Virus record (IMG/VR): IMGVR_UViG_3300033802_000252
Coordinates: 13,891 to 77,890 of that record
Length of the DNA stretch: 64,000 bases
Strand: one strand, 5' to 3'
DNA from: a virus
Both the position numbers and the translations under genes were made by a program. Shown here in pieces: positions 38,147 to 59,159 of this stretch (position 1 is its first letter; each line of letters begins with the position of its first letter). The notes beneath the pieces are model-generated. The model was given only the letters and a program-made list of their open reading frames with translations. It made no database searches and had not been told where the DNA came from.

Positions 38147-38162
38147 TAAAAGCAGGATTTTA
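38147..38162. repeat. TAAAA-N6-TTTTA junction site
   Basis: TAAAA GCAGGA TTTTA just after stop 38140. Confidence 0.55.
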
Positions 38163-38196
38163 ACACGAATAAAAAATAGAACAGATGACAGACAAG

Positions 38197-38292
38197 ACAT
38201 TATTGACGCACTTGACAGAGGGGAAGACGTAAACGGTTGGGAAGACGGTGCAGGAAATACGATTTATGTCTAATAAATGATCATGCCCAGGT
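38197..38292 (+). repeat. 96-bp direct repeat, copy 1
   Basis: Identical to 39388-39483. Confidence 0.9.
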
Positions 38293-38347
38293 GAGGATAG
38301 ACAATAGTAAAGAAGTAGAGCGCAATTAAAAAGGAGTTGTAGCAAAA

Positions 38348-38551
38348 ATGAAACTTATAAAAGGCAATCAGTATAATTACGTTTCTATTGCCGGCAATAT
38401 TCCAGTTATATTTATTGCGGAAGAAAAAGACTTCATAGAACATCATTGCAATTATTGCAATAAAAAAATTAGGCATATTTATTTTTTCGAAGATGATCGA
38501 AAATCAACGTATGCTTTCGGTAGCGAATGTATCAAAAAGATTATTCGTTAA
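38348..38551 (+). CDS. Small Zn-binding protein
   Basis: CNYC..H..FGSEC motif, AGGAG RBS. Confidence 0.6.
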   Translation: MKLIKGNQYNYVSIAGNIPVIFIAEEKDFIEHHCNYCNKKIRHIYFFEDDRKSTYAFGSECIKKIIR

Positions 38552-38894
38552 AGATTGAAACAACTTTAACAGTTAAAGACACGCTAGAAACCGCCAAACG
38601 TTACGTTTTAACATTAGTCCAGCAGGAACAAGAACAAGAGCAAGAAACAGAAACTGCATAAAAAATAAATATAACAGTCTACAAACGAAAGTTAATTTGT
38701 TTGTAGACTGTTAAACAGGAGGTTATATAACAAAAATGGGAATCACTTTAACAATCGCTAATATTATGTTTGTAATATCTTTAATAAACGTTTTCGTTGT
38801 TATTGGCTTAAACGTCACTAAAATTTGCGGACTATGAAGAAATTGAACGTTCCACAATATAACTATCCCGAAACATAACAGGAGTTGAAAAATA

Positions 38895-39347
38895 ATGCTA
38901 AAATGGAAAAATCGTAAAGCTAGAGTATCGTATCATAAGGAATGGGAAAGTAAAGGCAAAAATCCATTTTTTATTGATGTTAGCGCAGAAGTATCCAAGA
39001 AAGACAAATATCATTATGTAACTCCTAATTGGGATGGAACAGTAACAACATTATGGAATCATGAATTGTCTTTTCAACGTATGCCGGATGAATTTTGGAA
39101 TATTGACGAATGGATGATCGATTTAACACCTGTTCCCTTTGAATTATGGAAAGATGCAATAAATGCAGCAAAAAAACAATTAACATTTTATCATCACAGT
39201 CACTACGCACACAAGCGATTAGAGGAGGTTTTAAGCGATTTAGTAAAATATCCGTCAATGTCTCCACAAAGAGAAAAATTAATCAATATGTCGGCACATG
39301 ATATAATTAGAAAGTTTTATGATCCTGAGTATGTAGATATACATTAA
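38895..39347 (+). CDS. Hypothetical protein
   Basis: AGGAG RBS. Confidence 0.6.
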   Translation: MLKWKNRKARVSYHKEWESKGKNPFFIDVSAEVSKKDKYHYVTPNWDGTVTTLWNHELSFQRMPDEFWNIDEWMIDLTPVPFELWKDAINAAKKQLTFYHHSHYAHKRLEEVLSDLVKYPSMSPQREKLINMSAHDIIRKFYDPEYVDIH

Positions 39348-39387
39348 CAGCATAACAGGGAAGGTTTATCCTTCTCTTAAAAAACAA

Positions 39388-39483
39388 ACATTATTGACGC
39401 ACTTGACAGAGGGGAAGACGTAAACGGTTGGGAAGACGGTGCAGGAAATACGATTTATGTCTAATAAATGATCATGCCCAGGT
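39388..39483 (+). repeat. 96-bp direct repeat, copy 2
   Basis: Identical to 38197-38292. Confidence 0.9.
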
Positions 39484-39644
39484 TTCGTACCTGGGCAATA
39501 TATTTATGTGTAAAAAAGGAGTGATACCTATAAAAATCATCGGTGTACTTTTGATCCTTGCTATTGTCTTTTATCCTTTAATCATTCGATTCCCTTATTT
39601 TTCTGACGATAAATAATAAAATATTATTAATATAATACGTTTCA

Positions 39645-39660
39645 TATCGATATATATTAT
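39645..39660 (+). promoter_or_regulatory. TATCGATATA promoter-like motif
   Basis: TATCGATATA-TATTAT. Confidence 0.7.
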
Positions 39661-39693
39661 AGGGATAACTTTATAACACTGGAGGAATAAACA

Positions 39694-40326
39694 ATGACCG
39701 TCTCTGTTAATGAAACGCTTGATTTTGTATCCGACTTGTTAGGCGAAGCAATTTTTTCGGTCGATTCAAAACACTACAAAGATTTGACCGATGAACAAAA
39801 GGATCAAGTCAAGCAAACTTTTTTCCGTATGCTTGATGCCGAAAATATCAACGTTACAAGAATATTGATTGAACAAGCTGCTTCTATCTTTGTCAATTCT
39901 CCACTGGATTCACTTCTGCAGGAATACAAAAATCTTAAAAGTGAATTTTATCCTGCGCTTCAAAGTATTCAACCAGGACAGAAAATCACTATCGTTAAAT
40001 TTTCTGAATTTGGCTTCCCAATTCATTTTCAAACAACAGTTCACAGTATAACAATCAAACCATACGCACAGTATGAAGAAACACTTTATATTCTCCATAG
40101 ACCAAAACGCAAACGATCATTATACGGAACAAGAATTTGCCCTTATGAATCATTTTTTGTTTATGATGGTTGGATTGATATTGACATGGACAATATTATG
40201 CATAACACGTCCAAAACGGATTCTGCCACTATTAAAACAACAAGATATGTCAGTTTTAATCGTGGTTTTCTTCATGATGTTTTATCCATCATTGACAAAG
40301 AGCCTCTTTACAGATATAAAATATAA
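39694..40326 (+). CDS. Hypothetical protein
   Basis: GGAGG RBS. Confidence 0.65.
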   Translation: MTVSVNETLDFVSDLLGEAIFSVDSKHYKDLTDEQKDQVKQTFFRMLDAENINVTRILIEQAASIFVNSPLDSLLQEYKNLKSEFYPALQSIQPGQKITIVKFSEFGFPIHFQTTVHSITIKPYAQYEETLYILHRPKRKRSLYGTRICPYESFFVYDGWIDIDMDNIMHNTSKTDSATIKTTRYVSFNRGFLHDVLSIIDKEPLYRYKI

Positions 40327-40347
40327 TAACACGATTAAAAGGAGGGA

Positions 40348-40668
40348 ATGTACATGACTTTGTATACACTACTGGACAGAACTGCGATTAAAACGGCGTT
40401 GAGTGCATATCTTAATGCTGAACAACAACGCGTAGCCGTTTTAGATGACCGGCAAATTCAGATGTTATTTTCCAAAGATCAAAATGAAGAAGCTAGGAAA
40501 TTAATTGATCTGCGATATCCTGAAGCCCGCAAAGTTAAAGTAAGAGCAATTGAGCTTATTAAGGTAATGACACAAAACATTGAGGAATGGAAAGGAGTTG
40601 ATCCAGAGGATGTATATTACAGTGTAGTTCAATTTAACAAACTTGTAGAACTTGCTAAACAAATATGA
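40348..40668 (+). CDS. Hypothetical protein
   Basis: AGGAGG RBS. Confidence 0.6.
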   Translation: MYMTLYTLLDRTAIKTALSAYLNAEQQRVAVLDDRQIQMLFSKDQNEEARKLIDLRYPEARKVKVRAIELIKVMTQNIEEWKGVDPEDVYYSVVQFNKLVELAKQI

Positions 40669-40716
40669 CTATCAATGTTATAATCATACATATATAACCT
40701 GGATAGGAGGGATACC

Positions 40717-40917
40717 ATGTCTAAACTAAAGGTGATTAAATCACATGTGACGTATAACCATGAAACGCTGCCCGATGGCAAATATCGTTTGTCCAAGGTT
40801 ATCAAGGAGTATGATAAAGATCAATACCAACAAATGATTGATGATACATTTAAGTTGATTCGGGGTGAGATTTCAGAAAGTAAACTTTATCAAGAGTGGA
40901 AACGGAGTGAAAAATAA
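40717..40917 (+). CDS. Small hypothetical protein
   Basis: AGGAGG RBS. Confidence 0.6.
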   Translation: MSKLKVIKSHVTYNHETLPDGKYRLSKVIKEYDKDQYQQMIDDTFKLIRGEISESKLYQEWKRSEK

Positions 40918-40998
40918 TTCTATCTTTTTCAAGTGCATAAAGAGTCAATAAATTTATGCACTTTATAAAGGGTAGAATCGTTATTATTTATCTTCTCA

Positions 40999-41014
40999 TA
41001 TCGATATATACTAT
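40999..41014 (+). promoter_or_regulatory. TATCGATATA promoter-like motif
   Basis: TATCGATATA-TACTAT. Confidence 0.7.
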
Positions 41015-41055
41015 GAAAAACTTCGTCTATAGAGTAAATTTAAACAAAGGAGTGA

Positions 41056-41376
41056 ATGCGTATGCTAAAAACGAAAATCAAGCTTGTAGAAGAAGGAAAG
41101 AGTCGAATCTTTGCTGATTGGAGTCGGCACGCAGGTGTTACGAAGGAGCAATTTATCGAGGGTTTGAAGTGGGTCTGTTCTGATCCGTGTGACGGATCGA
41201 CTGGCGGACATCCTGGGAGATTGACAAGGGAGCTTGGCTGCCACCCTGAGCGCGGTCTAGTCAAAATAAAGCGTCAATATGACGAGACTGGCGGAGTTGT
41301 ATTTTACGAGATCGAGACAGGGCAGCTATGGAGCAAATTAGGCACTGCTTCTATTAGCGCACGAGACAAAATATGA
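41056..41376 (+). CDS. Hypothetical protein
   Basis: AGGAG RBS; higher GC than neighbours. Confidence 0.6.
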   Translation: MRMLKTKIKLVEEGKSRIFADWSRHAGVTKEQFIEGLKWVCSDPCDGSTGGHPGRLTRELGCHPERGLVKIKRQYDETGGVVFYEIETGQLWSKLGTASISARDKI

Positions 41377-41747
41377 GAAAGCGCACCATGAGGTGCGCCT
41401 TAGCCCCGACAGTTCGGGGAGCAACGATCCGAAAAAGGTTGTAAGTTAATGATTAACTATGAACCAAACGGATCACCCCTGCTAATGCAAGGAATAACAA
41501 ATTTATTACAATCCACGCACTGCAAGGAGTGCGACAACCTACAAACCTATCGTACTCCTTGGCTACAAAATTGTCAAGTAAAGGAGTAGATTTTAATGGG
41601 CAAAACTGTGATACAGAGCAAATAGGGTTGTCGCTCACATTCTCCTTTTTACTCATTGTTCAAGCGCATAACATATGAGTTGTGCGCTTGCTAGAGTGAG
41701 TAAAAAAAATTTTATTTCTTTATTTTTTATTATTTTTGCCCATCTTA

Positions 41748-41763
41748 TATCGATATATATAAT
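41748..41763 (+). promoter_or_regulatory. TATCGATATA promoter-like motif
   Basis: TATCGATATA-TATAAT. Confidence 0.72.
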
Positions 41764-41789
41764 AACAAGGCATTTAGGAGGGGAAGCGA

Positions 41790-42965
41790 ATGAGTATATA
41801 TAAATGCTTGTCAACTGACTTTCACAAACTAAAAAAGCGCATCAACCGTATAACAAAAAAGCTTGACAAGCACGGCAAGTCTTGGACGTTTGAACTTATT
41901 AGCATGCATCCAGAACGCGTTAAAGTAGTAGACATGACGAATCATGACAACATACCATCATGGCAATTCCAGCCGAAGACAAAGGAAATTATTACAGAAG
42001 TTGCAACCTATCGTTTTGAAATGGAACCTTTAAAACTTGGTGATTACAAGGTAATAGCAATCATCGAGCATGGCAAAACTAAAGATGATAAAAACGTAAA
42101 TATCATACATGCGTTAGAGTATGACCATGTAGACATTGAGCAATACAGGCATGCACCAAGTCGCTGCAATCATTGCAATATTAACAGACATCGCAACAAA
42201 ACAGTTTTGCTACTTGATAATATCACAGGTGACATTATTCAAGTCGGCATGACATGCTTACATGAGTATACAGGCATTGATTGCCTGGACGTGATCCAAG
42301 CATATCAAGATGCTACTATCGTCATTAACGAAAAGCCACAAATTGATGGCTCATATATTAATAACAGTTGGCAATACGAAGAAACTTTAATTTATCTCGC
42401 CTCCTGCATCCAGGAGATCGAGATGCACGGATACGAGAAGGAAGTTACAAAAACAAGAGCATGGAACAACATTGAAAAGCGTTACTATGAGCCGTATATT
42501 AATAAGGCGCAAGAGGTTATTGACTACTTTACTAGTCGTGATTTTGACGATTATTTTTTGCGTAACATTAAGTCAACGTTATCCCATGAATACGCAAAAA
42601 GTAGCGGTCTGGTTGCTTATGCTTACATAGCGTATCAAAAGGATATGGAGCGTGAAAAACAAAGAGAGATTGAGCGTGAAATTGCAGAAGCAAGTAAGCA
42701 TGTCGGCAATGTCAAAGACAGAATAACAGTTAAGGTTGAATTGTATAATCAGTTCACTTATGAAACAAATTATAGTTATTATGGTGAACTTAATTACATT
42801 CACATCTTTATTGATGAAGAAGGCAATCAATACAAATGGAAAACTCAAAACGCGCTAATTGATTATGATATAGGCGATGAGTTAATTATTACAGGCACAA
42901 TCAAGGCGCATGGAGAATATAAAGGAGTGAAACTAACAGAACTGACACGGTGCAAAATAGTATAG
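41790..42965 (+). CDS. Phage protein with Zn-binding motif and C-terminal OB-fold-like domain
   Basis: CNHC...QVGMTCL; HVGNVKDRI...ITGTIKAHGEYKGVKLTELTRCK. Confidence 0.6.
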   Translation: MSIYKCLSTDFHKLKKRINRITKKLDKHGKSWTFELISMHPERVKVVDMTNHDNIPSWQFQPKTKEIITEVATYRFEMEPLKLGDYKVIAIIEHGKTKDDKNVNIIHALEYDHVDIEQYRHAPSRCNHCNINRHRNKTVLLLDNITGDIIQVGMTCLHEYTGIDCLDVIQAYQDATIVINEKPQIDGSYINNSWQYEETLIYLASCIQEIEMHGYEKEVTKTRAWNNIEKRYYEPYINKAQEVIDYFTSRDFDDYFLRNIKSTLSHEYAKSSGLVAYAYIAYQKDMEREKQREIEREIAEASKHVGNVKDRITVKVELYNQFTYETNYSYYGELNYIHIFIDEEGNQYKWKTQNALIDYDIGDELIITGTIKAHGEYKGVKLTELTRCKIV

Positions 42966-42998
42966 GCAGAGCCGATCTGCCTAATCTTGTTTTCTGAA

Positions 42999-43014
42999 TA
43001 AAAATAGAATTTTA
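42999..43014. repeat. TAAAA-N6-TTTTA junction site
   Basis: TAAAA ATAGAA TTTTA after terminator. Confidence 0.55.
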
Positions 43015-43085
43015 AAGTAACTTATGATGGGGGTTAGCTGATGCAAGAAAAAAAAATAAAAAAACTGTTATTTTTCCTTCGTTCA

Positions 43086-43101
43086 TATCGATATATATAA
43101 T
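43086..43101 (+). promoter_or_regulatory. TATCGATATA promoter-like motif
   Basis: TATCGATATA-TATAAT. Confidence 0.72.
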
Positions 43102-43191
43102 GAAAGTAAATTAAATCAAAGGAAAAACAAAGATGAGGCTTACATATGAGCAACATAGATATATTGAAAAGCAATATTGGAGGTTTTAAAA

Positions 43192-43347
43192 ATGAAAACT
43201 ATAAACGAACTAAAAGACGGAAAATGTGTAGTTATTGCTGAAAAGAATGGAGTTGTTAAAAAATTTGCTGGGCATTTTGTATCAAAGTATCCAGCAGTAT
43301 TTTTCACTATTCCAGCAGATTATAAAATTTTAGGTTATGAACAATAA
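43192..43347 (+). CDS. Small hypothetical protein (not in ORF track)
   Basis: GGAGG RBS, MKTINELKDGK... Confidence 0.55.
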   Translation: MKTINELKDGKCVVIAEKNGVVKKFAGHFVSKYPAVFFTIPADYKILGYEQ

Positions 43348-43368
43348 AATTTTTAGGAGGTTTAACAA

Positions 43369-43821
43369 ATGAAAAAAATCAAAGTTAAACAAATTATTTT
43401 TGAATGGACAGAAGCTTCTCATATTGTCAAAGATAATACAGTAGTTAATACATTCAAAGAAGCAGAAGAAATTATTTTCAAAATTGCAGCACATTCACAC
43501 AATGAGGGATACACAAAAACCGCCTTTATAATTGAATGGGAGGACGGCAGAATACACAAGGGAAGAATAGACGTTCAACGGAAAGACGCATGGAAGGAAA
43601 ATCCACTAGGAAAACACGTCAAGTATTTTTATGAACATTTAGCTGGTGTCAGAAAACCTTGTGGCTGGACGGACGAGCAACTCAAAGCATATTTAAAGGC
43701 GGTTTATGATATTGACGAACAAGGACAAGAAGAAATAAAAGAAATTTTGAACACATATGCATTAGAAGACATTCCAGATACACCAGAGCAACAAACAATA
43801 TGCAAAGTGGGAGAAGAATAA
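43369..43821 (+). CDS. LPD25-like (large polyvalent protein-associated) domain protein
   Basis: EWTE...TFKEAE...GYTKTAF..W..G..HKGRIDV pattern. Confidence 0.55.
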   Translation: MKKIKVKQIIFEWTEASHIVKDNTVVNTFKEAEEIIFKIAAHSHNEGYTKTAFIIEWEDGRIHKGRIDVQRKDAWKENPLGKHVKYFYEHLAGVRKPCGWTDEQLKAYLKAVYDIDEQGQEEIKEILNTYALEDIPDTPEQQTICKVGEE

Positions 43822-43859
43822 GAAAATATCATATTGAACACACTTGAGGAGGTAATATA

Positions 43860-44447
43860 ATGAGCGCATATCTTTCATATTCACCTTGGGGAAGTATTCA
43901 ACATCGAAAAACAATTCAAGATGGAATTGTTGTAGTCGATACAGCAGGTCATGGGGGAATAATGATTCGTAAGGATGTTGCAGAACAATATCTTTCAAAA
44001 CAAGCTAGAAAAAAAGGGGTGAGATATCATGATTATTTTACATATGAGGAAGATTGTGACTATGCCATTCCAGTTTATGAATTAAGACACTTATGGAATA
44101 AATTTTACAAAGACAAGACGGAAGATGAAATTGAACTTTCGCTGATGAAGTCATTGAGTTTGTGGAACCCCGATTATCTTATTGCTATTGGAGTGAAGCC
44201 ACTTGATGAACAATATCAAATTTATTTAGACAACAAAAGAGAGGAAGAAATGAGAAAGAATCAAGATCCAGATTTAATTGTGGTAGCTTGGGGGTCGTGG
44301 CATACCAAAAAAGAAGGTGTTGTTTTGGTTGGAACCGCAGACGGTAAAAAACATTATGTTACCGAGAAAAGTTATGAAAACAGAAAGGGCTTGAATTTAT
44401 TGAGTAAATGCGAAGTTATCGAATATGATGTTCAAGAATCTGCATAA
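43860..44447 (+). CDS. DUF7007-like protein
   Basis: SPWG..Q...DGI..V.TAGHGG...YEEDCD pattern seen in plasmid/phage early genes. Confidence 0.6.
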   Translation: MSAYLSYSPWGSIQHRKTIQDGIVVVDTAGHGGIMIRKDVAEQYLSKQARKKGVRYHDYFTYEEDCDYAIPVYELRHLWNKFYKDKTEDEIELSLMKSLSLWNPDYLIAIGVKPLDEQYQIYLDNKREEEMRKNQDPDLIVVAWGSWHTKKEGVVLVGTADGKKHYVTEKSYENRKGLNLLSKCEVIEYDVQESA

Positions 44448-44474
44448 GAGGGTGGATTATAATCCATCCTCTTT

Positions 44475-47728: not shown

Positions 47729-48079
47729 ATGAACAACAATCAAACGACCGCACATGCAAGATATGAAGCACATGTTAAAGAATCTTTACTGGCTGGAAAA
47801 CCAGTCGAGTATAGATTGAAAGACTTTTTACCAAAGGATAATAAAAGCAAGACAAAACGATCACGACCAAAAACAAAGTATGAAAAAATGGTGCTTGAAG
47901 CATTTGAAGAAGGCAAAATAATGTTTCCCAAAATGCACGAGGATGTGACTATTAGACACGCTTATATTAAAAGTACAATCATGCACTGGATGTCAGAGTG
48001 TGAATCCATTGACGAAGTGAAAGAACTATACAACACTTATAAAAGAATTACATATAACACACCAGTATTCGAGTATTAA
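47729..48079 (+). CDS. Hypothetical protein
   Basis: ATG behind GGAGG. Confidence 0.6.
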   Translation: MNNNQTTAHARYEAHVKESLLAGKPVEYRLKDFLPKDNKSKTKRSRPKTKYEKMVLEAFEEGKIMFPKMHEDVTIRHAYIKSTIMHWMSECESIDEVKELYNTYKRITYNTPVFEY

Positions 48080-48106
48080 TGTTAAGGGAAGGTTTTATAC
48101 TTCCCT

Positions 48107-48122
48107 TAAAATAAATCTTTTA
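48107..48122. repeat. TAAAA-N6-TTTTA junction site
   Basis: TAAAA TAAATC TTTTA between terminator and RBS. Confidence 0.6.
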
Positions 48123-48143: not shown

Positions 48144-48320
48144 ATGAAAGACGTTTATATTCAAGAGTGTAATTCTTGTGGAGCAGAATTTCCAGTCCAA
48201 TACACAAAAGGCGGTTATAATTATATAGGAGAAACTTGTGATTGTGAAGATTCTTTTTCTCCACGTTGGGATTCTCCTAGTATTTCAGAGTGGGAGCAAC
48301 AACAGAGCAAGAGCCAATAA
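48144..48320 (+). CDS. Small Cys-rich protein bounded by junction sites (not in ORF track)
   Basis: GGAGG RBS; CNSC...CDC; stop TAA begins TAAAA-CAAGTC-ATTTA. Confidence 0.6.
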   Translation: MKDVYIQECNSCGAEFPVQYTKGGYNYIGETCDCEDSFSPRWDSPSISEWEQQQSKSQ

Positions 48321-48566
48321 AACAAGTCATTTAAGGAGTTGAATATCATTGGCTAAAGAAGAATGGAAATCTCAAAGTTTAGAGGAAATTATTGAGGAAT
48401 TTGATCGAAAACATGGTAAAATTGATGTGTCTTTATATTGGGAGGGTTGGCGCAAAATAACAGCAGAAGATTTAAAAGATTATCAAGGGAGATATTAAAT
48501 TTTTTTATATTTTCCCTATTTTCTTGATTCTCAAATTATATATATAATGAGAGGAGGATTAAGAAA

Positions 48567-48818: not shown

Positions 48819-49086
48819 AAAAGGTGAATTTTAAGGGGTTTTATTATAATTAAGACGTTGACATAAGAATATTTTAAACTTTGGAGTGATTTCATGTATC
48901 AATATATGCCTAAGTGGAAAGAGACAAACAAAGAAACTTATATAAAAATGTTGGAGTCAAGAATAGAAGGGATTGAAAGAAAGAGGGTAAAATCAGTTAG
49001 TGATTCAAAAAGATTAGAGGGGTTAAAGCGAGAACTTGATCAGATAAAAAAATAATTTTATTCGGTCATTATTTTTTATTGTGCCG

Positions 49087-49102
49087 TATCGATATATATA
49101 AT
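49087..49102 (+). promoter_or_regulatory. TATCGATATA promoter-like motif
   Basis: TATCGATATA-TATAAT. Confidence 0.72.
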
Positions 49103-49180
49103 GGAGGTGAAAATAAGAATAAAATATATATTGAAACCTAAAAATAAAAGTGTATAATAAAACTAAAATAATACTAAGGA

Positions 49181-50251
49181 GTGAATTTAATGTCAAAAAT
49201 TGATTTGGGACAAAAATTTGAAGAAGTTATGAGACAGCTCGAGGAACTTGAAGAAAAGAAAGTAGATGTTTTGAAGAAACCAAGAGATATTGGAATTAGA
49301 GATAATAGCTTACATATTGAAGGACTTGGGCTTGTTGATTTTACAAAGACTGGTTTACAGACGTTTTGTGCCAAGTTGGATCTTCCATCCTCTTATATGT
49401 TCAAATTGATGGACAAGCAGGACAAGAGTTTGCGAGAAATTGAAAGAGATCAAGAAGTGTTCAAAATGAATATTCAAAGAGGTCTTGAAACATTGAGACC
49501 TGATACGGATATCTTTTTTAGAACATACAATGAGGGAGACAGACATATCATTAGAGGGGTGTTCAGTGACCGATATAATGTAGTGGACAATTTGCCACTC
49601 CTGGGAGAGATTCGAAACTATGATTTTAGCCAACTTAAAACTGAACACTTTAATGTAACAAGCGATTATTTGGATGTTCGCTTCACGATGCCTCATTTGA
49701 AGCGGTCGATTGGCAAATTGTCAGAACATGAAGTTAGATTTGGAGTGTCTGATGATATTGTTTTTCCTGCAATTCACCTTAGAAATTCAGAAGTCGGTCG
49801 TAGTAAAATTTCTATTCAATTCATTATTTATCGCCTGGTTTGCACAAATGGATTAATTAATCAACGTGATCAATATCGAATCGTAAATAAAAAACATGTT
49901 GGCGATTATGATTTGTCTGAAGTAAATAATCGCATTGCTGACATTGTGGGAAAGACTCCAGATATGTTTGAAGCATACATTGATACCATGATTAATTCAA
50001 AAAGCGAAAAAGTGGAGGATGCGGAAGAGATTATTTTGGGTTTAAATAAGCGACAAGGAATCACAAAACGAATGACTGAAACAGTATTGGATAATTGGAA
50101 AAGCGAGCAGCGAAGCGAAGCAACAAAGCATGGAATTATTAGTGCGATAACTGCAGGTGCTAGAGATTGGGAGCGAAAGAAGAATGACTTCACTGGTCGC
50201 TTGGCGCTTGAAGAAATCGCTGGAGAAATGCTTTTTGCAAAGAGTCTTTGA
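49181..50251 (+). CDS. DUF932/DUF945-family protein
   Basis: RGVFSDRY...DN, LRNSEVG, YRLVCTNG motifs. Confidence 0.75.
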   Translation: MNLMSKIDLGQKFEEVMRQLEELEEKKVDVLKKPRDIGIRDNSLHIEGLGLVDFTKTGLQTFCAKLDLPSSYMFKLMDKQDKSLREIERDQEVFKMNIQRGLETLRPDTDIFFRTYNEGDRHIIRGVFSDRYNVVDNLPLLGEIRNYDFSQLKTEHFNVTSDYLDVRFTMPHLKRSIGKLSEHEVRFGVSDDIVFPAIHLRNSEVGRSKISIQFIIYRLVCTNGLINQRDQYRIVNKKHVGDYDLSEVNNRIADIVGKTPDMFEAYIDTMINSKSEKVEDAEEIILGLNKRQGITKRMTETVLDNWKSEQRSEATKHGIISAITAGARDWERKKNDFTGRLALEEIAGEMLFAKSL

Positions 50252-50317
50252 TGCTATAATCAGGGGAGAGGAAAACTCTTCCCTGATTCATACATATTAT
50301 TATTTTTTGATGTGTAA

Positions 50318-50333
50318 TATCGATATATATTAT
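50318..50333 (+). promoter_or_regulatory. TATCGATATA promoter-like motif
   Basis: TATCGATATA-TATTAT. Confidence 0.7.
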
Positions 50334-50386
50334 GAGTGAGAAATTCAATAAAATGTGAGTTCAAGATATAAGGTGGTGAAAAAACA

Positions 50387-50757: not shown

Positions 50758-50773
50758 TAAAAATGACATTTTA
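50758..50773. repeat. TAAAA-N6-TTTTA junction site
   Basis: TAAAA ATGACA TTTTA before RBS. Confidence 0.6.
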
Positions 50774-51076
50774 ATGGGAGTTGATAAGATGAATAAAGCA
50801 ATCTGGAAATACACATTGTTACCACAAACAAAGCAGGAAATGATTTTACCATTGAATTCAAAAATACTGTCAGTGAAAGTGCAGCATGAAGAAATTGTTT
50901 TATATGCACTTGTTGATCCAGATGAAACAAGTATTGAAACTGTTGATATAATTATTTTAGGAACTGGTCATAAAATAGCAGATGAATCAATTCGGGATTA
51001 TGTTTTTCTTGACACAGTTAAAATGAACAATGGACATTTAATGTTCCATGTGTTTTATAGGCAATATGACTTTTGA
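50774..51076 (+). CDS. Conserved phage protein bounded by junction sites
   Basis: IWKY.L...LYALVD...GTGH...HVF motif; flanked by sites at 50758 and 51077. Confidence 0.65.
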   Translation: MGVDKMNKAIWKYTLLPQTKQEMILPLNSKILSVKVQHEEIVLYALVDPDETSIETVDIIILGTGHKIADESIRDYVFLDTVKMNNGHLMFHVFYRQYDF

Positions 51077-51111: not shown

Positions 51112-51282
51112 ATGTTATCTGAATTAAAAGTGTTTAAGATTGGTCAGTATGATAACTTTTCAGTTAATGGGATTTTTGAATACGATGATGAAACATATCT
51201 TATTATTCAAATATTAAAAGTAGAAACATTTAATTATACTGAAAAAATAGAAGTGACGGCACTTGTTACAAAAATAAAATGA
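51112..51282 (+). CDS. Small protein bounded by junction sites (not in ORF track)
   Basis: AAGGAG RBS; sites at 51077 and 51275. Confidence 0.5.
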   Translation: MLSELKVFKIGQYDNFSVNGIFEYDDETYLIIQILKVETFNYTEKIEVTALVTKIK

Positions 51283-51290
51283 CTGTTTTA
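51275..51290. repeat. TAAAA-N6-TTTTA junction site
   Basis: TAAAA TGACTG TTTTA containing the stop codon. Confidence 0.6.
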
Positions 51291-51376: not shown

Positions 51377-52447
51377 ATGAAAATTATCGTTAATACCAAA
51401 GAAATCCAAACAGTACTTAAAAATTTACTGAAAATTACATCTAATAAATCTAGCAATCCTATGTTAAGTAATATCAAATTAACAGTAACAGATAAAGTTG
51501 AATTAACGACTACGGATTTTACTGTAACAGCGAATATTAAGCTGAAAGATGTTCAAATTATTGAGCCTGGATCAATTGTAATAACTAAAGACACGATAAA
51601 ACTTATTTCTAAATTAACTGATAACAGAATGATTATAACAGATCATGAAGTCAATTCCGGTAATCGTAACGTAAAATACACTGGATTTGATGCAAAGTTA
51701 TATCCAATGCATGAAAATAAAAATTATAACATCCACGCCTTTACATTGAGTAAAGATAAAATGTTTGATGTTCAAAGCATTACATACGCCTGTGGGGATT
51801 TAAACGTCAATCCAACTATGAGCGCATTAAATATTAGGGGTATAATGGTAAGTGCTTGTGATAGGCATAGATTAGCTATTAAAATGTTGGAATATAACAA
51901 CTATACAAAAGACTTAAATATTCCATCGTATGCGATAGATTATGTAATTACATGTACAGATAAACAATATAATGGCGACTATGCTTTTTATGTTTCGGAT
52001 GATGATAAATATATCAAAATAATTTTTGAAAATATAACGTTTGAGGTTCGTTTAATTGACGGCGTATATCCTGATACGAAAAAAATTATTCCGCAATATT
52101 TCAAAACGGAAGCAAGGGTAAATAAAGATGAAATATTTGAAGAATTAAAATTATTAAGGGATGTAACAGATAAAAGAAAATTAGTTCAAATTGATGTAAC
52201 AGCAGATAAAATTAAACTTTTAGCAAAAACAGGGGATAAGCAAAACATTTTGATAAGTGAATTAAATGCAATTACAACAGGAGATGATATTTTTATCGGT
52301 GCAAATATTAACTATATCCTAGATGCATTAAAAAATAATAATAACGAATATGTAACATTCCGATTTCCTGGTAAAAATAGTCCATTTATGATTGATGATG
52401 ATACATTAATTTTACCGTATCGCATTAATCGAACTGATGTCGCTTAA
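51377..52447 (+). CDS. dnaN: DNA polymerase III beta sliding clamp homolog
   Basis: 356 aa; ACDRHRLA, RLIDGVYPD..KIIP, NINYILDAL, LILPYR. Confidence 0.85.
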   Translation: MKIIVNTKEIQTVLKNLLKITSNKSSNPMLSNIKLTVTDKVELTTTDFTVTANIKLKDVQIIEPGSIVITKDTIKLISKLTDNRMIITDHEVNSGNRNVKYTGFDAKLYPMHENKNYNIHAFTLSKDKMFDVQSITYACGDLNVNPTMSALNIRGIMVSACDRHRLAIKMLEYNNYTKDLNIPSYAIDYVITCTDKQYNGDYAFYVSDDDKYIKIIFENITFEVRLIDGVYPDTKKIIPQYFKTEARVNKDEIFEELKLLRDVTDKRKLVQIDVTADKIKLLAKTGDKQNILISELNAITTGDDIFIGANINYILDALKNNNNEYVTFRFPGKNSPFMIDDDTLILPYRINRTDVA

Positions 52448-52771: not shown

Positions 52772-52784
52772 AAAAGTATTTTAA

Positions 52785-52985
52785 TTGCTTATCGAGAATG
52801 AAGCGATAACAATGAAATTTTGCTTGATTTGTGATGAAATTATTGAAGACGGGAAAGAATTTGTAAAAGTGGACGATCATTATTTTGGTAGTGATGAGTG
52901 TTGTGACAAATATTTTTTGGATATCAGGCAAAGGGAAGATGATGAGTGGGAAGAGTGGCTAGTGTTTGGGAGGGTGAATAATTAA
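52785..52985 (+). CDS. Small Zn-finger protein
   Basis: CLIC...GSDECC. Confidence 0.45.
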   Translation: MLIENEAITMKFCLICDEIIEDGKEFVKVDDHYFGSDECCDKYFLDIRQREDDEWEEWLVFGRVNN

Positions 52986-53020
52986 AAAATGGATATAATC
53001 TTTTTACGGAGGGTGAATTT

Positions 53021-53749
53021 ATGGCTAAAGCTATAGCACGTTGCACATGTACTGAATGTGGTGATACATTTACTAAGGAGAGAACTTTTCGTAGTCGTAG
53101 TGAGGCTGATTCGTGGGAAAAGTGGGCGGAAAGTAATTACACTCAATGCTCAAAATGCTATGGTAAGAAGCAGCGAGAAAAAGAATTGGCTCTACCTCCT
53201 ACAATTACTATCTCTCTTTTGCCATTTCATGCAGATAAGCCTGTATTGCTTGTATGGAGTGGTAATACAATGGACGTTAAGGATCAAATTAAAGAAATGG
53301 GTTATGTGTGGGATGAACCTCCTTCGAGTGGTGTATTAGGAGCGTTGGAATGGAGAACTCCAAGAAAGACATGGTACAAGATGATCACATTGGACAAGAT
53401 GCAAGAGTCAATGGATCAAGTAAAGACAATTGAGAATGTAGTCATTAAAAATGAAGTGCGTGACATTGATCTAATTACACTTAAGCAATTAATGTCTGAA
53501 AAAGCAAAGTACCAGGCACAAATAGATGAAGAGGTTAAGGCGCTTGGAGATAGACCAAAGAAGCCCGAATGTTATCCAGTAGGTAAATGGAATGGTCGTA
53601 TCTATGGAAAATCTGGTGCTTATCGGATATATGTTGATAATGTTGAGCAATGGATATCTGATGACGAAGTTAAACTCATTCAAGAATATCAAAAGAAACG
53701 AGACGAGTATAATAAAAAAGTTGATGAAATAAAGAAAAAATATCACTAA
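53021..53749 (+). CDS. Zn-finger-containing hypothetical protein
   Basis: CTECG...CSKC; GGAGG RBS. Confidence 0.65.
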   Translation: MAKAIARCTCTECGDTFTKERTFRSRSEADSWEKWAESNYTQCSKCYGKKQREKELALPPTITISLLPFHADKPVLLVWSGNTMDVKDQIKEMGYVWDEPPSSGVLGALEWRTPRKTWYKMITLDKMQESMDQVKTIENVVIKNEVRDIDLITLKQLMSEKAKYQAQIDEEVKALGDRPKKPECYPVGKWNGRIYGKSGAYRIYVDNVEQWISDDEVKLIQEYQKKRDEYNKKVDEIKKKYH

Positions 53750-53779
53750 TTTATTATTTTGTTATTTTCGTTACTTTCG

Positions 53780-53795
53780 TATCGATATATATTAT
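53780..53795 (+). promoter_or_regulatory. TATCGATATA promoter-like motif
   Basis: TATCGATATA-TATTAT. Confidence 0.7.
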
Positions 53796-53820
53796 AGAAG
53801 AAAAAAGGAGGTAATAAATA

Positions 53821-54828
53821 TTGATTAGGAAACCAATTAGTTGGAATGTCAAACAAGTATGTAGAATGATTGAAAAGGGATCTATCACTTTTGATAATCC
53901 AATTCAACGTCCATCGGGACAATGGAAACTTGAGGATGCTTCATTGCTTATTCACTCTTTGTTGACTATGTTTGTTCCAGATGTGTATGCGATTCAGCAT
54001 AAGGGTGAAATTGATGGAAAAGAAGCGAATATTTACGATATCATTGACGGGAAGCAACGATTAACGCTGATTAACAGTTTCCGCAACAACGAATGGTCAT
54101 TGACCAAACTTTACCCTGTGAAACTTGAAACAGGTGAAGAGTATGATATTTCTGGACTGACTTTCGAACAGCTTCCCGAAGAGGTGCAAGATGCGATTGA
54201 TAGCTATACCATTACATTTAGAGTAATTGAGCTTGAAGATGGAGACGATGAGGAAAGTATTGTAGAAGATATTTTTTATCGTCTCAATAATGGTAAGGCA
54301 GTAAGTCGTGAGCACCTTGCTCTGGTGTCTGCTCAAAAACATGTCCGTGAATTTGTGTATGACATAGTAAATAATCATCATGTTTTCAAAGTATCTGCTC
54401 ATTTTCCTGCTTCAAGTGTTAGAAAATCTGATATGGAAATGAGTGTGTTGCAATCGATTATTTTGGCTGGGGGATATGAATATAATTCATTTGCAGCCAA
54501 GGATATTGAAAAGACTATTTCTTCAAACGATATTGAGGATGAAGTTCTGCAAAAAGTACGCGCGGCTTTTGATGCTTTAGCCAATGTATTTACGGAGAAA
54601 CATAAAAAATTTGTTGTAAAGATTAATATTCCTCCAATGATTGCCTTGTTGACTAACAATGATCATGACAAAGCAGGTGAGTTTTTGAGATACTACGCTG
54701 ACAACATTAAGAAGGGAGATGAATATAAACGTTATACAGGAGCAGGTAATACTAAAAAACATATGGTTCAAGGCAGAGTGGACGGATTGCAAAAATTGTT
54801 TGATGAATGGCTGAATACTCAACAATAA
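53821..54828 (+). CDS. DUF262 (ParB/Srx-like, GmrS-type) domain protein
   Basis: IQR..W, DIIDGKQRL, IFYRLNNG motifs. Confidence 0.8.
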   Translation: MIRKPISWNVKQVCRMIEKGSITFDNPIQRPSGQWKLEDASLLIHSLLTMFVPDVYAIQHKGEIDGKEANIYDIIDGKQRLTLINSFRNNEWSLTKLYPVKLETGEEYDISGLTFEQLPEEVQDAIDSYTITFRVIELEDGDDEESIVEDIFYRLNNGKAVSREHLALVSAQKHVREFVYDIVNNHHVFKVSAHFPASSVRKSDMEMSVLQSIILAGGYEYNSFAAKDIEKTISSNDIEDEVLQKVRAAFDALANVFTEKHKKFVVKINIPPMIALLTNNDHDKAGEFLRYYADNIKKGDEYKRYTGAGNTKKHMVQGRVDGLQKLFDEWLNTQQ

Positions 54829-55243
54829 GAGAAGAGATTCTCTTATTCTCTTCTCTTATTGTGTGAAATATAATAGTAGGTGGTGACTTGGTGTATATTG
54901 TAACAACACTTGAAAAGCATGATGACAAATTGACAATCCAAGATTATATTTTAGATAGTTCAAAAGCTATGAAGTTATTTAAGAAATTATGTAGGGAAGC
55001 ACATTATTTGGTGATAAGAAGTAGGAAAGTAAGATGACAAGATTGGGGCGACAACAACATGCAAAAAAGACCTCCTACATACGTAAGAGGCAGTTCTGAT
55101 TATGATTACTATCGTGAACCTATGCATTATCTTGAGCGAGAAAGGCAACAAAGGAACGGTTGTTTGGGTGGAGTGTTGTTTATCTTGGTAATTATTTTGT
55201 TCTTGGGATTTGCTAAATTATAAAATGTATTGTGGGTGCTGTT

Positions 55244-55543
55244 TCACCATTCAGTGTATTGATCGTCAACCATTAAGCCATATTCTTCATTGTATTCAGC
55301 ATCCACAATTACATAGCCATTTTGGATACGGTATCCTTTTTCAAGTACGTATTTAACTGGCACGGGAAGTTCGTAATCATCATAGTTACCATTTGTCTCT
55401 GAAAGATGACACTCCAGAACACACATTATTGAATGTCCACAATCTCGAATATAAGCGTGATAAGGGATTAGTTCGTCTGGTATGGGATTGGGGTAAAAAC
55501 GCATTTCAACCATGTGTTTAATATCTTCTAAGCTTTTTCTCAT
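55244..55543 (-). CDS. Hypothetical protein, counter-oriented
   Basis: AAGGA RBS on minus strand; flanked by 11-bp inverted repeats. Confidence 0.65.
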   Translation of the reverse strand: MRKSLEDIKHMVEMRFYPNPIPDELIPYHAYIRDCGHSIMCVLECHLSETNGNYDDYELPVPVKYVLEKGYRIQNGYVIVDAEYNEEYGLMVDDQYTEW

Positions 55544-55616
55544 GACAACACATCCTTTCTAGGATAGTATTATAATATGTTAAAAATACATTTTAACGGA
55601 TTAGGAGGTAATAGCT

Positions 55617-56309
55617 ATGAGCAGAATTGACATTGACATGATAAAGCAAGCATATGAAAAAACGGGCTTAAAACCAGTGCGGGGATCTCATAACATTTAC
55701 AACAACGAATCATTGATTTATGCAACGGGTTTGCTTGCTCTATATGCCCATATTAATAATAACATAAATCCAGACTTAAGTGATGCAATTAAATGGGGTT
55801 TTAATGAATATGGAGAAGGCTATACAATGGGTTTCCTTTGGGGTTTTTATGGCAACGAAGAAAAAAGGAAGGAGTTTGAAGCAGTTAATGAAGCAAAAGC
55901 AATAGATCAATTTAATCAAGGATGGAATGATGGATTTGAAAGTTGGAAAGCTGTTAAAGGCTGCGGATTAGCTAAAAACTTAAATAGAGACGAAGTTGCA
56001 ATTGAAATGTATGGACACATCGTTAAAGAGGTTCTTGATAATGATTATGAATTTATTTTCGTAAAGTCTATGAAGCCAGGTGAGTCATATAATATAGGTG
56101 ATAATTGTCGTGAGGGATATGAATGGGAATGGGAAGAGGGTTATATAAGAACTATTGCGACATGGGGATTTAATACCGATGATTATTTTACAGAGTTATG
56201 TATGAAACTTGATAGAGCGGTTCTTTATCAACAATATAATTTAGAGAGCGAAGTAGTCATAATTGTTGAAGGAAAAGTAGTTTTGGTTATTGATAAGGAG
56301 GGATATTAA
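55617..56309 (+). CDS. Hypothetical protein
   Basis: AGGAGG RBS. Confidence 0.6.
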   Translation: MSRIDIDMIKQAYEKTGLKPVRGSHNIYNNESLIYATGLLALYAHINNNINPDLSDAIKWGFNEYGEGYTMGFLWGFYGNEEKRKEFEAVNEAKAIDQFNQGWNDGFESWKAVKGCGLAKNLNRDEVAIEMYGHIVKEVLDNDYEFIFVKSMKPGESYNIGDNCREGYEWEWEEGYIRTIATWGFNTDDYFTELCMKLDRAVLYQQYNLESEVVIIVEGKVVLVIDKEGY

Positions 56310-56326
56310 AAATATGAACGTATTAT

Positions 56327-56372
56327 TAAAAGTCGCCGTAAAACCCCTAGCTTTAGCTATGGGGAGTGTCAA
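56327..56372 (+). mobile_element. 46-bp collapsed IS200/IS605 mini-element
   Basis: Nearly identical to 45594-45637. Confidence 0.75.
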
Positions 56373-56515
56373 AAAATAAACCAACTCCAGGTTGGTGGTA
56401 TTTGTGGTGTTTGTGGTAAACTTGACAAAAAAGCGATATCATTAAAAGAGGACGATGGAAGGATTTTGTGTAATGTTTGCAAAGAGGATCATTAGTGAAA
56501 GGAGAATATTTATAA

Positions 56516-57007
56516 ATGAAAAAAGATATTTTTCTTATTAAAACTAATCAAGGATTAGGTGATTATGTTGTATATAATGATGAAGAGATTCAAGTATATG
56601 GTGATGTTACTTTAGTTGGTTTCAAGGACTATCATAATACACCAATATTTAGATATGATTTGTTTGATGAGAGATCTGATACAGTTTCAGTGGAAGATAG
56701 AGGATTAGCAGATTATACTCGCTATCTGCTTATTGAACGGTTAACGGATAAGATATTTATGATTAGAGTATTTGACAGTTTATTTCAACCGATAATGCAT
56801 AATTACTTTGCTAAAATGGATGCTTATAGTGATTATGCGGATCAACGCTTCGTACATGAATTTATACTTTATGATGAAAAATTAAAGGAGATAAGTGCGA
56901 GTCATACTGTAAACTTGAAACAAACACACTTGTCAGAAGATAAGTTGTTTAAATGGTGTGCAGATGTGATTAGTAGAGATTTGAAACCTAAACATCACGA
57001 AGATTAA
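56516..57007 (+). CDS. Hypothetical protein
   Basis: AAGGAG RBS. Confidence 0.6.
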   Translation: MKKDIFLIKTNQGLGDYVVYNDEEIQVYGDVTLVGFKDYHNTPIFRYDLFDERSDTVSVEDRGLADYTRYLLIERLTDKIFMIRVFDSLFQPIMHNYFAKMDAYSDYADQRFVHEFILYDEKLKEISASHTVNLKQTHLSEDKLFKWCADVISRDLKPKHHED

Positions 57008-57008
57008 T

Positions 57009-57024
57009 TAAAACTACAATTTTA
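57009..57024. repeat. TAAAA-N6-TTTTA junction site
   Basis: TAAAA CTACAA TTTTA between stop and RBS. Confidence 0.6.
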
Positions 57025-57038
57025 AAGGATGTGATGAA

Positions 57039-57461
57039 ATGAAAATAAAGATTCCCTTTACCACAACCACCACAAGAAAGCCTCTGTCTTTAGACATGGG
57101 GATGAATTGTGGTAAATATATACAAATTCGTCAAGTACAAGACGTTAAAACAAAACCTGTGGCAGATGGTGACAGTCTGCCAGCCTAAGAACCTATATGG
57201 TCTGTCTTAGGATGGGCTGATGACACAGCCCTGAACTTGGAGATTGCATGAAGCAGAAATGCATGAGTGCGCTAATCATCCAAGAATCCCCCGGATTTAT
57301 CCGTGGGGAGTGTCAAACAATGGTGCGTTGTGATTGGAGAAAGAACGCCAGAAGAACAGAAAGAGTATGAAAAGCAAAGGAATCCCATTGGATATCTTAT
57401 AGATGAAATCGATAAAATAAGCAAGGATATTGAAGAAATAAAAAAGTACTCAAAAGGATGA
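57039..57461 (+). pseudogene. 55-aa gene interrupted by a mini-element
   Basis: Removing 57062-57316 restores MKIKIPFTQWCVVIGERTPEEQKEYEK...YSKG*. Confidence 0.7.
57062..57316 (+). mobile_element. 255-bp non-autonomous IS200/IS605 element with omega-RNA-like right end
   Basis: Follows TTAC, left hairpin, structured internal sequence, aagaatcccccggatttatccgtggggagtgTCAA; no target duplication. Confidence 0.85.
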
Positions 57462-57555
57462 GTTGATGTGTTTTATAAAATGGCTGATATATTACAAGTT
57501 GGTACAGTAGGAGATTTTACACAACCATTTTAAATTAATAAGGAGGGGAATATGT

Positions 57556-57828
57556 ATGAGTTTTTCAATACGTCGTGATCAACATGGTCATGCTGTAGCA
57601 GTTGAAAGAGAAGGATATACAATATTTCATTTACAAGCTGGCACCGAAAGAAACGAAGAAGAAATTGAAAAATTTATTAAGTTTATAAATCAACAGCATG
57701 AATATCTTCATATTGCAGTTAATGCTTTAAAGAATATTAGAGATATGGATAATGGCATATTTGAGGAAGATTATTACAAAATGATAGAGATTGCAAAAGA
57801 AGCAATAGAAAGGATTGATTGTCTCTGA
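57556..57828 (+). CDS. Hypothetical protein
   Basis: AAGGAGG RBS. Confidence 0.6.
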   Translation: MSFSIRRDQHGHAVAVEREGYTIFHLQAGTERNEEEIEKFIKFINQQHEYLHIAVNALKNIRDMDNGIFEEDYYKMIEIAKEAIERIDCL

Positions 57829-58137
57829 TAAAGAGACATGCCAAAAGACTACGGAGTTGTCTTTGAAGACGTCATAAAACACTTCCGATAAGGGGCTGTC
57901 TTGGATAGCCCTTTTTCATAAACATTCAATGGAAATGGAAATGGAGGATGATTAATGAAAATTGATAAATGGAGAGCAAAAATGAGAGAATTCTATAGCA
58001 ATGTAACCAGGGATGAATTAATCAAACATTTAAATAAGTTGGTTTTAAAGTTGTAGATATTTCAAAAAAGCAAAATGAGAATAAGTTGAAAAATTAGCTA
58101 TAATTAATAATAAATAAAATATAAAAATAATATAAAA

Positions 58138-58181
58138 CGAACATTTGTTCGCTTGTTAAATTACATAAATATGGGTATAAT
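58138..58181 (+). promoter_or_regulatory. LexA box abutting SigA promoter of mazF-like gene
   Basis: CGAACATTTGTTCG then TTGTTA-17-TATAAT. Confidence 0.75.
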
Positions 58182-58207
58182 GGGTTCGAAAATAAATAAT
58201 AAAGAAG

Positions 58208-58618
58208 GTGATATTATTGGTTGTGGGAGTAGTAGAAAAACCAATAAAAAAACTGTCTAGAAATGATCTACGTATCAAAAAAAATGAAATTTGGATGGCA
58301 GAAATGCGCGAAGGAAAAGGATCAGAACAGCAGGGGACAAGACCTGTGGTTATTCTTCAAAATGACTTGGGAAATAAATTTGCGCCAACTGTAATTGTTG
58401 CGCCTATTACATCAAAAATATCAAAATCAAGGATGCCAACCCACGTATATATTAAAGCTAGAAATGGTGGATTGGATGAAGATTCGCTTATTTTGTTAGA
58501 GCAAATTGTAACACTGGACAAGTCTCGTTTAAAGTATAAAATATGTGATCTTAATGCATTTGAAAAAGAGTATGTAATGGCGGCATTAATGGTTAGTGTG
58601 GGGATACTGAGTGCATAA
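58208..58618 (+). CDS. mazF: PemK/MazF-family endoribonuclease (orphan)
   Basis: GSEQQGTRPVVILQNDLGNKFAPTVIVAPITS...DSLILLEQIVTLDKSRL. Confidence 0.9.
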   Translation: MILLVVGVVEKPIKKLSRNDLRIKKNEIWMAEMREGKGSEQQGTRPVVILQNDLGNKFAPTVIVAPITSKISKSRMPTHVYIKARNGGLDEDSLILLEQIVTLDKSRLKYKICDLNAFEKEYVMAALMVSVGILSA

Positions 58619-58719
58619 TTTTTACAGTGTCGAGATGTACTTAATTGATATGCAAAGGCATTTAATAGCAACTTGTGTTAACACAACATAAGTTTTATGA
58701 GAAATTGGAGTGAGATGAA

Positions 58720-58902
58720 GTGAATAAAATCATTGCAAATGAAGACTTAAGCGATGAATTCATTGAAGAAATGGTGCAAAGATATAGGAACATGGGGTTG
58801 ATTGTAGATGTCATTACAGAGAATGCGGATGTATATATTAAAGAAGGAAGTGGATATAGAAAAGTAACCAAGGAAAATTGTACGGTAACCAGGATAAAAT
58901 GA
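58720..58902 (+). CDS. Small hypothetical protein
   Basis: ORF whose stop lies in a TAAAA-N5-TTTTA site. Confidence 0.5.
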   Translation: MNKIIANEDLSDEFIEEMVQRYRNMGLIVDVITENADVYIKEGSGYRKVTKENCTVTRIK

Positions 58903-59159
58903 CGTTTTAAACCAACAATGGTAATTGGATTTGTAACTGTTGTTAATTGGGCTAATTCAAAAGTTCTCAAAAAAGAGAAGGGAAAAAATAAAATATGAGA
59001 ATAAACATTAGAAAAGGTGTATTCGAAACGAATTCAAGTTCAATGTCTGAATGAAGGCTTGAAAATATTAGCGTAAAATAAAATGAGCGGCAGGAACTGT
59101 CGGGAATTTGTAACATGGATTTAGCATAGAAAGACAAGTTATACGAGGGTGGTGATTTA

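Follow-up and report, generated by a model that had tools for sequence, protein, structure and literature searches.

A strict palindromic site at the gene junctions of SPbeta-like phages and its possible role in the exchange of gene modules

Short DNA sites that recur between the genes of one replicon have been described in several settings. The attC sites of integrons, long imperfect palindromes, fold as single strands on which the integrase IntI acts beside attI and a common promoter (Pc), and the cassettes excise as circles. Stoperators of cluster A mycobacteriophages are asymmetric sites of 13–14 bp, oriented with transcription, degenerate in sequence and bound by the immunity repressor (L5 gp71). 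Does either of these describe the interrupted palindrome TAAAA-N6-TTTTA, which recurs at gene junctions in 64,000 nucleotides of phage DNA (hereafter the window; bases 13891–77890 of the 148,616-bp single virus record IMGVR_UViG_3300033802_000252 of IMG/VR)? With stoperators it shares its number, roughly 25–35 copies of one short site across short intergenic gaps. Unlike them, it is symmetric, strict and tied to mosaic borders. With integron arrays it shares the placement of short palindromic sites between single, mostly one-directional accessory genes, and a tyrosine recombinase is encoded.

Three further systems invite comparison. Many 28-bp pdif sites with an 11-6-11 layout flank adaptive genes, as dif modules, in plasmids of Acinetobacter (Mindlin et al. 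2019, PMC6449649). Both cases combine numerous 28-bp recombinase-type sites in the accessory region of a replicon with modules that occur in different contexts. However, the arms of pdif are two sequences for the host proteins XerC and XerD and its modules are bounded by pairs of sites, whereas the phage sites have mostly identical palindromic arms and, in nearly every copy, a centre of its own, kept in order among relatives. The PeSL cassettes of T4-type phages are promoter-plus-terminator units, long enough for homologous recombination, that form mini-circles (Arbiol et al. 2010, PMC2839356). Here, too, an intergenic element is repeated in plastic regions of small genes, and exchanges explain insertion, deletion and replacement between relatives; the palindrome differs in having ten fixed bases, a locus-specific centre and no promoter or terminator role. 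Within the SPbeta lineage itself, the 15-bp element SPBRE (about AAATACAAAWAATATGTATA) is found at about ten promoters and serves lysogeny control via MrpR/YopR (Kohm et al. 2023, PMC10516654). Like the palindrome, SPBRE recurs between genes, and the protein that binds it has a tyrosine-recombinase fold, but the palindrome is a separate element, present in 34 copies in SPbeta and only occasionally adjoining SPBRE.

A preliminary description of the window, made from its letters alone, had proposed that the palindromes are crossover sites of integron-like, promoterless single-gene cassettes. We show that the site is real, strict, specific to the lineage, located at junctions and read as two half-sites. 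It almost certainly is a docking site for a protein on DNA. We tentatively favour the view that the sites are addressed crossover joints, of tyrosine-recombinase-like geometry, for the exchange of gene modules between related phages.

A strict dyad-symmetric site between genes

By gene order and content, the record belongs to a large SPbeta-like phage of Bacillus type. A minus-strand late operon encodes terminase (71% identical to SPbeta YonF), portal, tape measure and tail genes, and a long plus-strand arm holds about 200 genes, mostly small. Within the accessory part of this arm, all seven exact sites listed by the preliminary description were found (Table 1). Five more had escaped it: one at a junction of the late operon, one in a DnaN-like gene, and three in coding DNA of the late region (2988, 4498 and 12215). 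The window thus holds 12 exact sites, compared with 1.24 in dinucleotide shuffles, none of 100 of which reached 12. Across the 148.6-kb genome there are 30 sites at spacer 6; all other spacers between 0 and 20 give 0–8, and the reversed arrangement of the arms occurs twice. In junction DNA (23.2 kb) we counted 23 sites where a third-order Markov model of the same DNA predicts 1.0; other spacers gave 0–5. A lack of enrichment over composition-matched intergenic background had been named as grounds for abandoning the idea, and by this measure it survives.

The bias towards junctions also holds up. Between 38147 and 58909, seven of eight sites lie at gene junctions, where they overlap a stop codon or start 2–34 nt past one; the next start codon follows after 15–22 nt in three cases and after 87–186 nt in four. 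About 23 of the 30 sites in the genome lie between co-directional genes, typically 8–28 nt ahead of the next start, and at several of them the stop of the upstream gene is the motif's own TAA. In five genomes the median distance to the next start is 20–33 nt and nearly all sites separate co-directional genes. Sites cluster in the early and middle arm, with few in the late operon. The copies in coding DNA at 2988, 4498 and 12215 are compatible with chance background, and the one inside the DnaN-like gene is possibly a chance copy as well, about three per genome being expected.

How strictly is the site defined? In the junctions of the five genomes, 96 exact sites stand against 3.75 at control spacers, a 25-fold excess, while single mismatches are at background except for T12->A. 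The one-mismatch and N5/N8 versions noted earlier do occur where they had been placed, but the one-mismatch class is not enriched, and these variants are probably noise or decayed sites. Since single mismatches are at background, the examples of small open reading frames (ORFs) boxed by two sites, which had relied on such variants, are weak.

Palindromic flanks extend the dyad to about 28 bp in an 11-6-11 layout with a spacer of strictly six. The symmetry of the flanks is more pronounced in SPbeta (r=0.69; extended site TYTnnW-TAAAA-N6-TTTTA-WnnARA) than in the present phage (r=0.44; ttC..TAAAA..TTTTA..Gaa). The likeness to tyrosine-recombinase core sites on which the preliminary description had built is therefore real as regards geometry: inverted arms of about 11 bp enclose a centre within the 6–8 bp known from Xer/dif-like sites. 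To our knowledge the sites do not resemble B. subtilis dif, and the ComK box, the CodY box and the UP element differ from the motif in spacing or arrangement. Every site within one genome has its own, different centre.

Two IMG/VR contigs of a sister clade, G002 (L188-L195) and G017 (L196-L202), reveal how the arms are read. Their half-site is T[AG]AAA, and sites of the form T[AG]AAA-N6-TTT[CT]A number 59 in G002 and 50 in G017, with N6 as the only spacer. In both contigs mixed sites form the largest class; in G002 the combination TAAAA...TTTCA accounts for 42 of 59, an excess over independently drawn halves (p=6e-4). Relative to transcription mixed sites are equally common in the two orientations (14 versus 19, and 10 versus 15). 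Mixed half-sites that are abundant in both orientations are incompatible with a base-paired hairpin and with a directional signal such as a promoter, and show that two half-sites are read on duplex DNA. The excess of mixed sites in G002, together with two MrpR_C_cat matches in that contig, hints at recognition by two different subunits.

The motif is a trait of SPbeta-like phages, from Bacillus to Clostridioides. In an unbiased scan TAAAA-N6-TTTTA was the top 5-N-5 palindrome in five SPbeta-like genomes. SPbeta carries 34 copies, phi3T 30, a Staphylococcus SPbeta-like phage 17 and the Mammaliicoccus phage phi127 37; C. difficile phiCD211 has 26 sites over a background of about 6. The same scan gave no enriched 5-N-5 palindrome in Lysinibacillus phage LC76P1. 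Sites were also counted in 24 long IMG/VR contigs that have a related terminase: 17 hold 22–48 copies (controls 0–8), two are intermediate and five have 0–6. SPO1, phi105, K and phiC2, which infect the same hosts but are unrelated, have 0, 0, 4 (equal to control) and 0. An exact SPbeta 30-mer, searched in the genome collection as a check on host-genome background, had no match. The searchable literature yielded no description of the motif.

Homology breakpoints and persisting centres in related phages

Do genes change hands at these sites? Close relatives of the phage were sought and not found: neither a megablast search of the phage collection with two stretches of the window nor related-locus scans of viral and genome collections returned any, an exact-protein look-up gave identical contigs only, the best match in a homologue search was 48% identical, and the IMG/VR contigs with the closest terminases (73–75%) share DNA similarity over only 3–4 kb. 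The idea of gene swapping was therefore examined where relatives exist. Co-directional junctions of 20–150 nt with and without the motif, of matched median length, were compared as to whether homology between two genomes breaks there. Motif junctions were more often breakpoints between SPbeta and phi3T (odds ratio (OR) 3.9, p=0.03), between Mamm127 and Mamm6255 (OR 4.5, p=0.006) and between Mamm36 and Mamm6255 (OR 6.2, p=0.004); for Mamm127 and Mamm36 the ratio of 2.2 was not significant. Homology often breaks off at the outer limit of an arm or where arm and centre meet, as at SPbeta 87603 or at Mamm36 133048 versus Mamm6255 132310.

A stronger signal comes from the centres. In three clades, identical six-base centres occupy collinear positions although both 30-nt flanks and the neighbouring genes are unrelated. 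Such persisting centres number 6 between SPbeta and phi3T, 5–6 in two Mammaliicoccus pairs and 1 in the third, and 7 between G002 and G017, where fewer than 1 would be expected by chance. Both the breakpoint association and the centres that outlive their flanks are observed in the relatives only.

These results partly support the earlier proposal, as regards the breakpoints and persisting centres of the relatives; integron-like insertion and excision are not supported. An integron platform of IntI, attI and common promoter is absent: none of the three recombinase-family genes of the window heads an array, no primary site adjoins a recombinase, and no exact sites occur near 30.7–31.8 kb, around the YopP-like gene. 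Nor are the sites folded, imperfect palindromes like attC; their five-base arms are perfect, changes of the G-U type are not favoured, and the mixed half-sites refute pairing and point to duplex half-sites. The excision of circles, also predicted, fits poorly with a genome in which neighbouring sites, and indeed all sites, differ in their centres, which argues against excision between neighbours. Finally, the supposed cassettes can hardly be called promoterless, as sigma-A-like promoters and terminators of the region's own are interspersed among them.

Readings of the site and candidate proteins

How, then, might the sites work? In the model that we tentatively favour, TAAAA-N6-TTTTA would form the core of a dyad site of ~28 bp that a paired, SPbeta-lineage-specific protein reads on duplex DNA, each half-site comprising T-R-AAA plus outer bases specific to the lineage. 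The arms would be fixed and the six central bases, different at each locus, would serve as the address. When two related phages or prophages meet, exchange would take place between sites of the same centre; the flanking genes would be replaced on both sides, and the site with its centre, as well as the gene order, would be preserved. Inverted 11-bp arms, a 6-bp centre and the need for matching centres make a phage-encoded protein of the tyrosine-recombinase family the most likely agent; we infer both catalysis by a site-specific recombinase and the protein responsible. Where mixed TAAAA/TGAAA arms predominate, the recombinase may act as two different subunits. More tentatively, the sites could make up a genome-wide array of 30–60 individual addresses, each open to exchange only with its own counterpart in another phage, an array that, with a dedicated candidate recombinase, allows genes, anti-defence genes included, to be swapped in register without flanking homology.

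Which protein could be responsible? The window encodes two tyrosine recombinases with near-complete or complete catalytic sets. The first, a YomM-family protein, displays R-K-HxxK-H-Y; R, K, H, H and Y are shared by four lineages, each of which has Lys in the place of Arg II, and HxxK is kept in Bacillus, Staphylococcus and Mammaliicoccus phages. YomM is unusually conserved (68% identity to SPbeta versus 25–35% for its neighbours), second only to terminase among the proteins compared. The other is the YopP-like protein, with the complete set. The preliminary description had the sites driven by one of these two, and for YomM phylogenetic profiling contradicts this: G014, G015, G020 and phiCD211 have 26–31 sites each but lack YomM, and in G002, which has YomM, 5 of the 59 sites of T[AG]AAA form are pure TAAAA-N6-TTTTA. 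YomM is thus neither necessary nor sufficient for the motif. The repressor MrpR and the DndB-like YopQ occur together in 16 of 17 motif-rich IMG/VR contigs, and also in motif-poor G001 and in G002. None of the profiled proteins tracks the motif cleanly. The "MrpR-like" gene of phiCD211 was not recognised by Pfam, and HU-like YonN was rejected as the binder, for it is present everywhere, motif-free LC76P1 included.

Along with these profiles, several observations weigh against addressed exchange. Between SPbeta and phi3T, 29 of 38 breakpoint events lack the motif, which rules the sites out as exclusive joints of the mosaic. The excess of breaks over the remaining junctions was not significant between G002 and G017, and the present phage shares centres with other clades at chance level only. 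Where junctions are tight, most of the DNA that can hold a viable crossover belongs to the motif, so that the clustering of breakpoints at its edges is partly forced. Laboratory hybrids of phi3T and SPbeta had their crossovers inside identical blocks of 1.4–18 kb, where they are not placeable. An identical stretch of 16–25 bp could moreover allow exchange by a Sak4-type annealase without any site-specific enzyme, and exchange by such short homology would give the same picture of same-centre sites with replaced flanks.

The most serious competitor, to which we assign a lower though substantial probability, is a dispersed operator or roadblock for a symmetric regulator, comparable to stoperators, that tunes read-through or translation starts and leaves gene swapping as a by-product of short shared sequence. 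A strict dyad-symmetric site in about 30 copies, nearly always between co-directional genes at the short distance from the start recorded in five genomes, clustered in the early and middle arm and scarce in the late operon, is what such a regulator might be expected to leave. The lineage also offers a precedent in MrpR on SPBRE, a recombinase-fold protein that only binds DNA, and the co-occurrence of MrpR and YopQ with the motif and the many breakpoints that lack it are in line with this reading. However, chromatin affinity precipitation sequencing (ChAP-seq) of MrpR in an SPbeta lysogen yielded ten peaks, each of them attributed to SPBRE (Kohm et al. 2023, PMC10516654), and not 34 sites. SPBRE itself was rejected as the identity of the palindrome: its sequence differs, the regions upstream of the ten ChAP-seq targets mostly share AAATACAAAWAATATGTATA and not the palindrome, with yorM as an exception, no copy of AAATACAAAWAATATGTATA being seen within 200 nt ahead of it. 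Strictness is a further difficulty, for a single mismatch is enough to abolish the enrichment of the palindrome, while operators tend to be degenerate. Locus-specific centres that outlive both flanks in three clades oblige the operator reading to add short-homology exchange. Genes downstream of the sites are conserved to the same degree as neighbouring genes, with no obvious regulon among them, and this lack of difference also disposes of the notion that sites mark accessory rather than conserved genes.

An improbable alternative is that some other phage enzyme with sequence specificity, a nickase or endonuclease for instance, or a factor for replication, packaging or genome organisation acts on the palindrome, and that breaks made there seed recombination. 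All-or-none recognition of ten out of ten bases in an interrupted palindrome is more typical of a nuclease or partition protein than of an operator, breakpoints cluster at the edges of the site, and these phages possess several nucleases and a Sak4-type annealase. Yet no candidate co-varied with the motif in the profiles that were run, the avoidance of coding DNA is unneeded for a distributed organisation signal, and nothing was seen that points to nicks or ends.

Very unlikely, in our view, are two further readings: that a phage-directed RNA polymerase uses the site as its promoter, or that the site forms a hairpin in RNA with an effect on processing or on translation of the next gene. The position just upstream of ribosome-binding sites at many junctions and a strictness like that of phage late promoters would suit these. 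Against them stand the symmetry of core and flanks, the mixed sites, which come in both orientations and break a base pair, and the failure of G-U variants to be favoured; on the same grounds we rejected a hairpin in either RNA or DNA. An intrinsic terminator was discarded because the stem would consist of only five A-T pairs, which is not stable, and separate GC hairpins precede some sites. YonO uses a single transcription start, upstream of yonK, and no YonO homologue was found in this genome, unlike SPbeta, so the sites are not YonO promoters. That AT-rich intergenic DNA and TAA stops produced the sites by chance is already refuted: even though the arms contain TAA and the junctions hold 240 TAAAA and 136 TTTTA in 23 kb, the excess is confined to spacer 6, does not extend to the reversed arrangement and replicates in more than 20 genomes.

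Mapped features, neighbouring genes and implications

Table 1. Palindromic sites, recombinase-family and associated genes, and neighbouring features of the window (window coordinates; centre, the six bases between the arms).
Feature	Position	Strand	Centre	Remarks
Exact site	38147..38162		GCAGGA	7 nt past stop of 145-aa gene; 186 nt before next called start
Exact site	42999..43014		ATAGAA	Preceded by terminator-like hairpin (42963-42983) after 391-aa gene
Exact site	48107..48122		TAAATC	Directly 3' of GC hairpin (48074-48106); 22 nt before ATG at 48144
Exact site	49045..49060		AAATAA	Holds stop of 53-aa gene; upstream of sigma-A-like promoter and DUF932 gene
Exact site	50758..50773		ATGACA	First TAA is stop of upstream gene; 16 nt before start at 50789
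Exact site	51275..51290		TGACTG	Overlaps stop of 56-aa gene; 87 nt before DnaN-like gene
Exact site	57009..57024		CTACAA	2 nt past stop; 15 nt before next start
Exact match	52207..52222			Inside DnaN-like gene
Exact site	11773..11788			Sole motif junction of late operon; 63 nt before tape-measure gene
Exact match	2988..3003			Inside 939-aa tail gene
YomM-family tyrosine recombinase	11786..12772	-		328 aa; 68% identical to SPbeta YomM; candidate binder of the site
YopP-like tyrosine recombinase	30742..31833	+		363 aa; full R..K..HxxR..W..Y; second candidate
YopQ-like DndB-family protein	59567..60901	+		444 aa
MrpR/YopR-family repressor	60905..61882	+		Tyrosine-recombinase fold without catalytic set
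527-aa protein	28921..30504	-		Heads late operon
DUF932 gene	49190..50251	+		Accessory arm
DnaN-type sliding clamp gene	51377..52447	+		
GmrSD_N-domain protein	53821..54828	+		Accessory arm
Sigma-A-like promoter	48515..48545			Upstream of small gene
Sigma-A-like promoter	49077..49105			Upstream of small gene
Sigma-A-like promoter	50300..50335			Upstream of small gene

At the late-operon site, read on the minus strand, the TAA is the stop of the YomM-like gene. The stretch from yomM to the tape-measure gene is a variable insertion spot in SPbeta and phi3T (yomJ-L; insertion sequence (IS) genes). A fourth tyrosine recombinase, canonical and Xer-like (279 aa, full R-K-HxxR-H-Y), lies outside the window near the left end of the record (genome 5216-6055, minus strand). 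It is probably the integrase, and relatives of it are present in phiCD211 and LC76P1.

The three sigma-A-like promoters share a ...ATCGATATATA(T)AAT core. Promoters of the ATCGATATATA type are likely the counterpart of the SPBRE-bearing promoters of SPbeta and separate from the palindrome. A promoter scan was uninformative, with 84 hits versus 91.5 in shuffles. In the place of YonO, the late operon is headed by the 527-aa protein, which combines a GIY-YIG-like N-terminus with a match to the PHROG "sigma factor" family phrog_5767 and has homologues in Staphylococcus, Mammaliicoccus and C. difficile SPbeta-like phages. The closest homologues of the sliding clamp are only 43–48% identical, one of them in Paenibacillus xylaniclasticus. 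In Mammaliicoccus phage phi127 the region 65460-68499 holds a terminase gene in two parts with an annotated endonuclease gene between them, a layout suggestive of an inserted intron or intein-like element.

SPbeta has served as a model phage for 50 years; large prophages related to it are widespread in Bacillus, Staphylococcus and Clostridioides and carry toxins, bacteriocins, and defence and anti-defence genes. A strict site at the borders of accessory genes and at the edges of mosaic segments would explain how such phages trade single genes while their gene order is kept. If a dedicated enzyme does act on the sites, these phages would have a recombination system that is new, multiplexed by nature and orthogonally addressed. 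Even under the more modest interpretation as an operator, the palindrome would still be an undescribed second regulatory element of this lineage, beside SPBRE.

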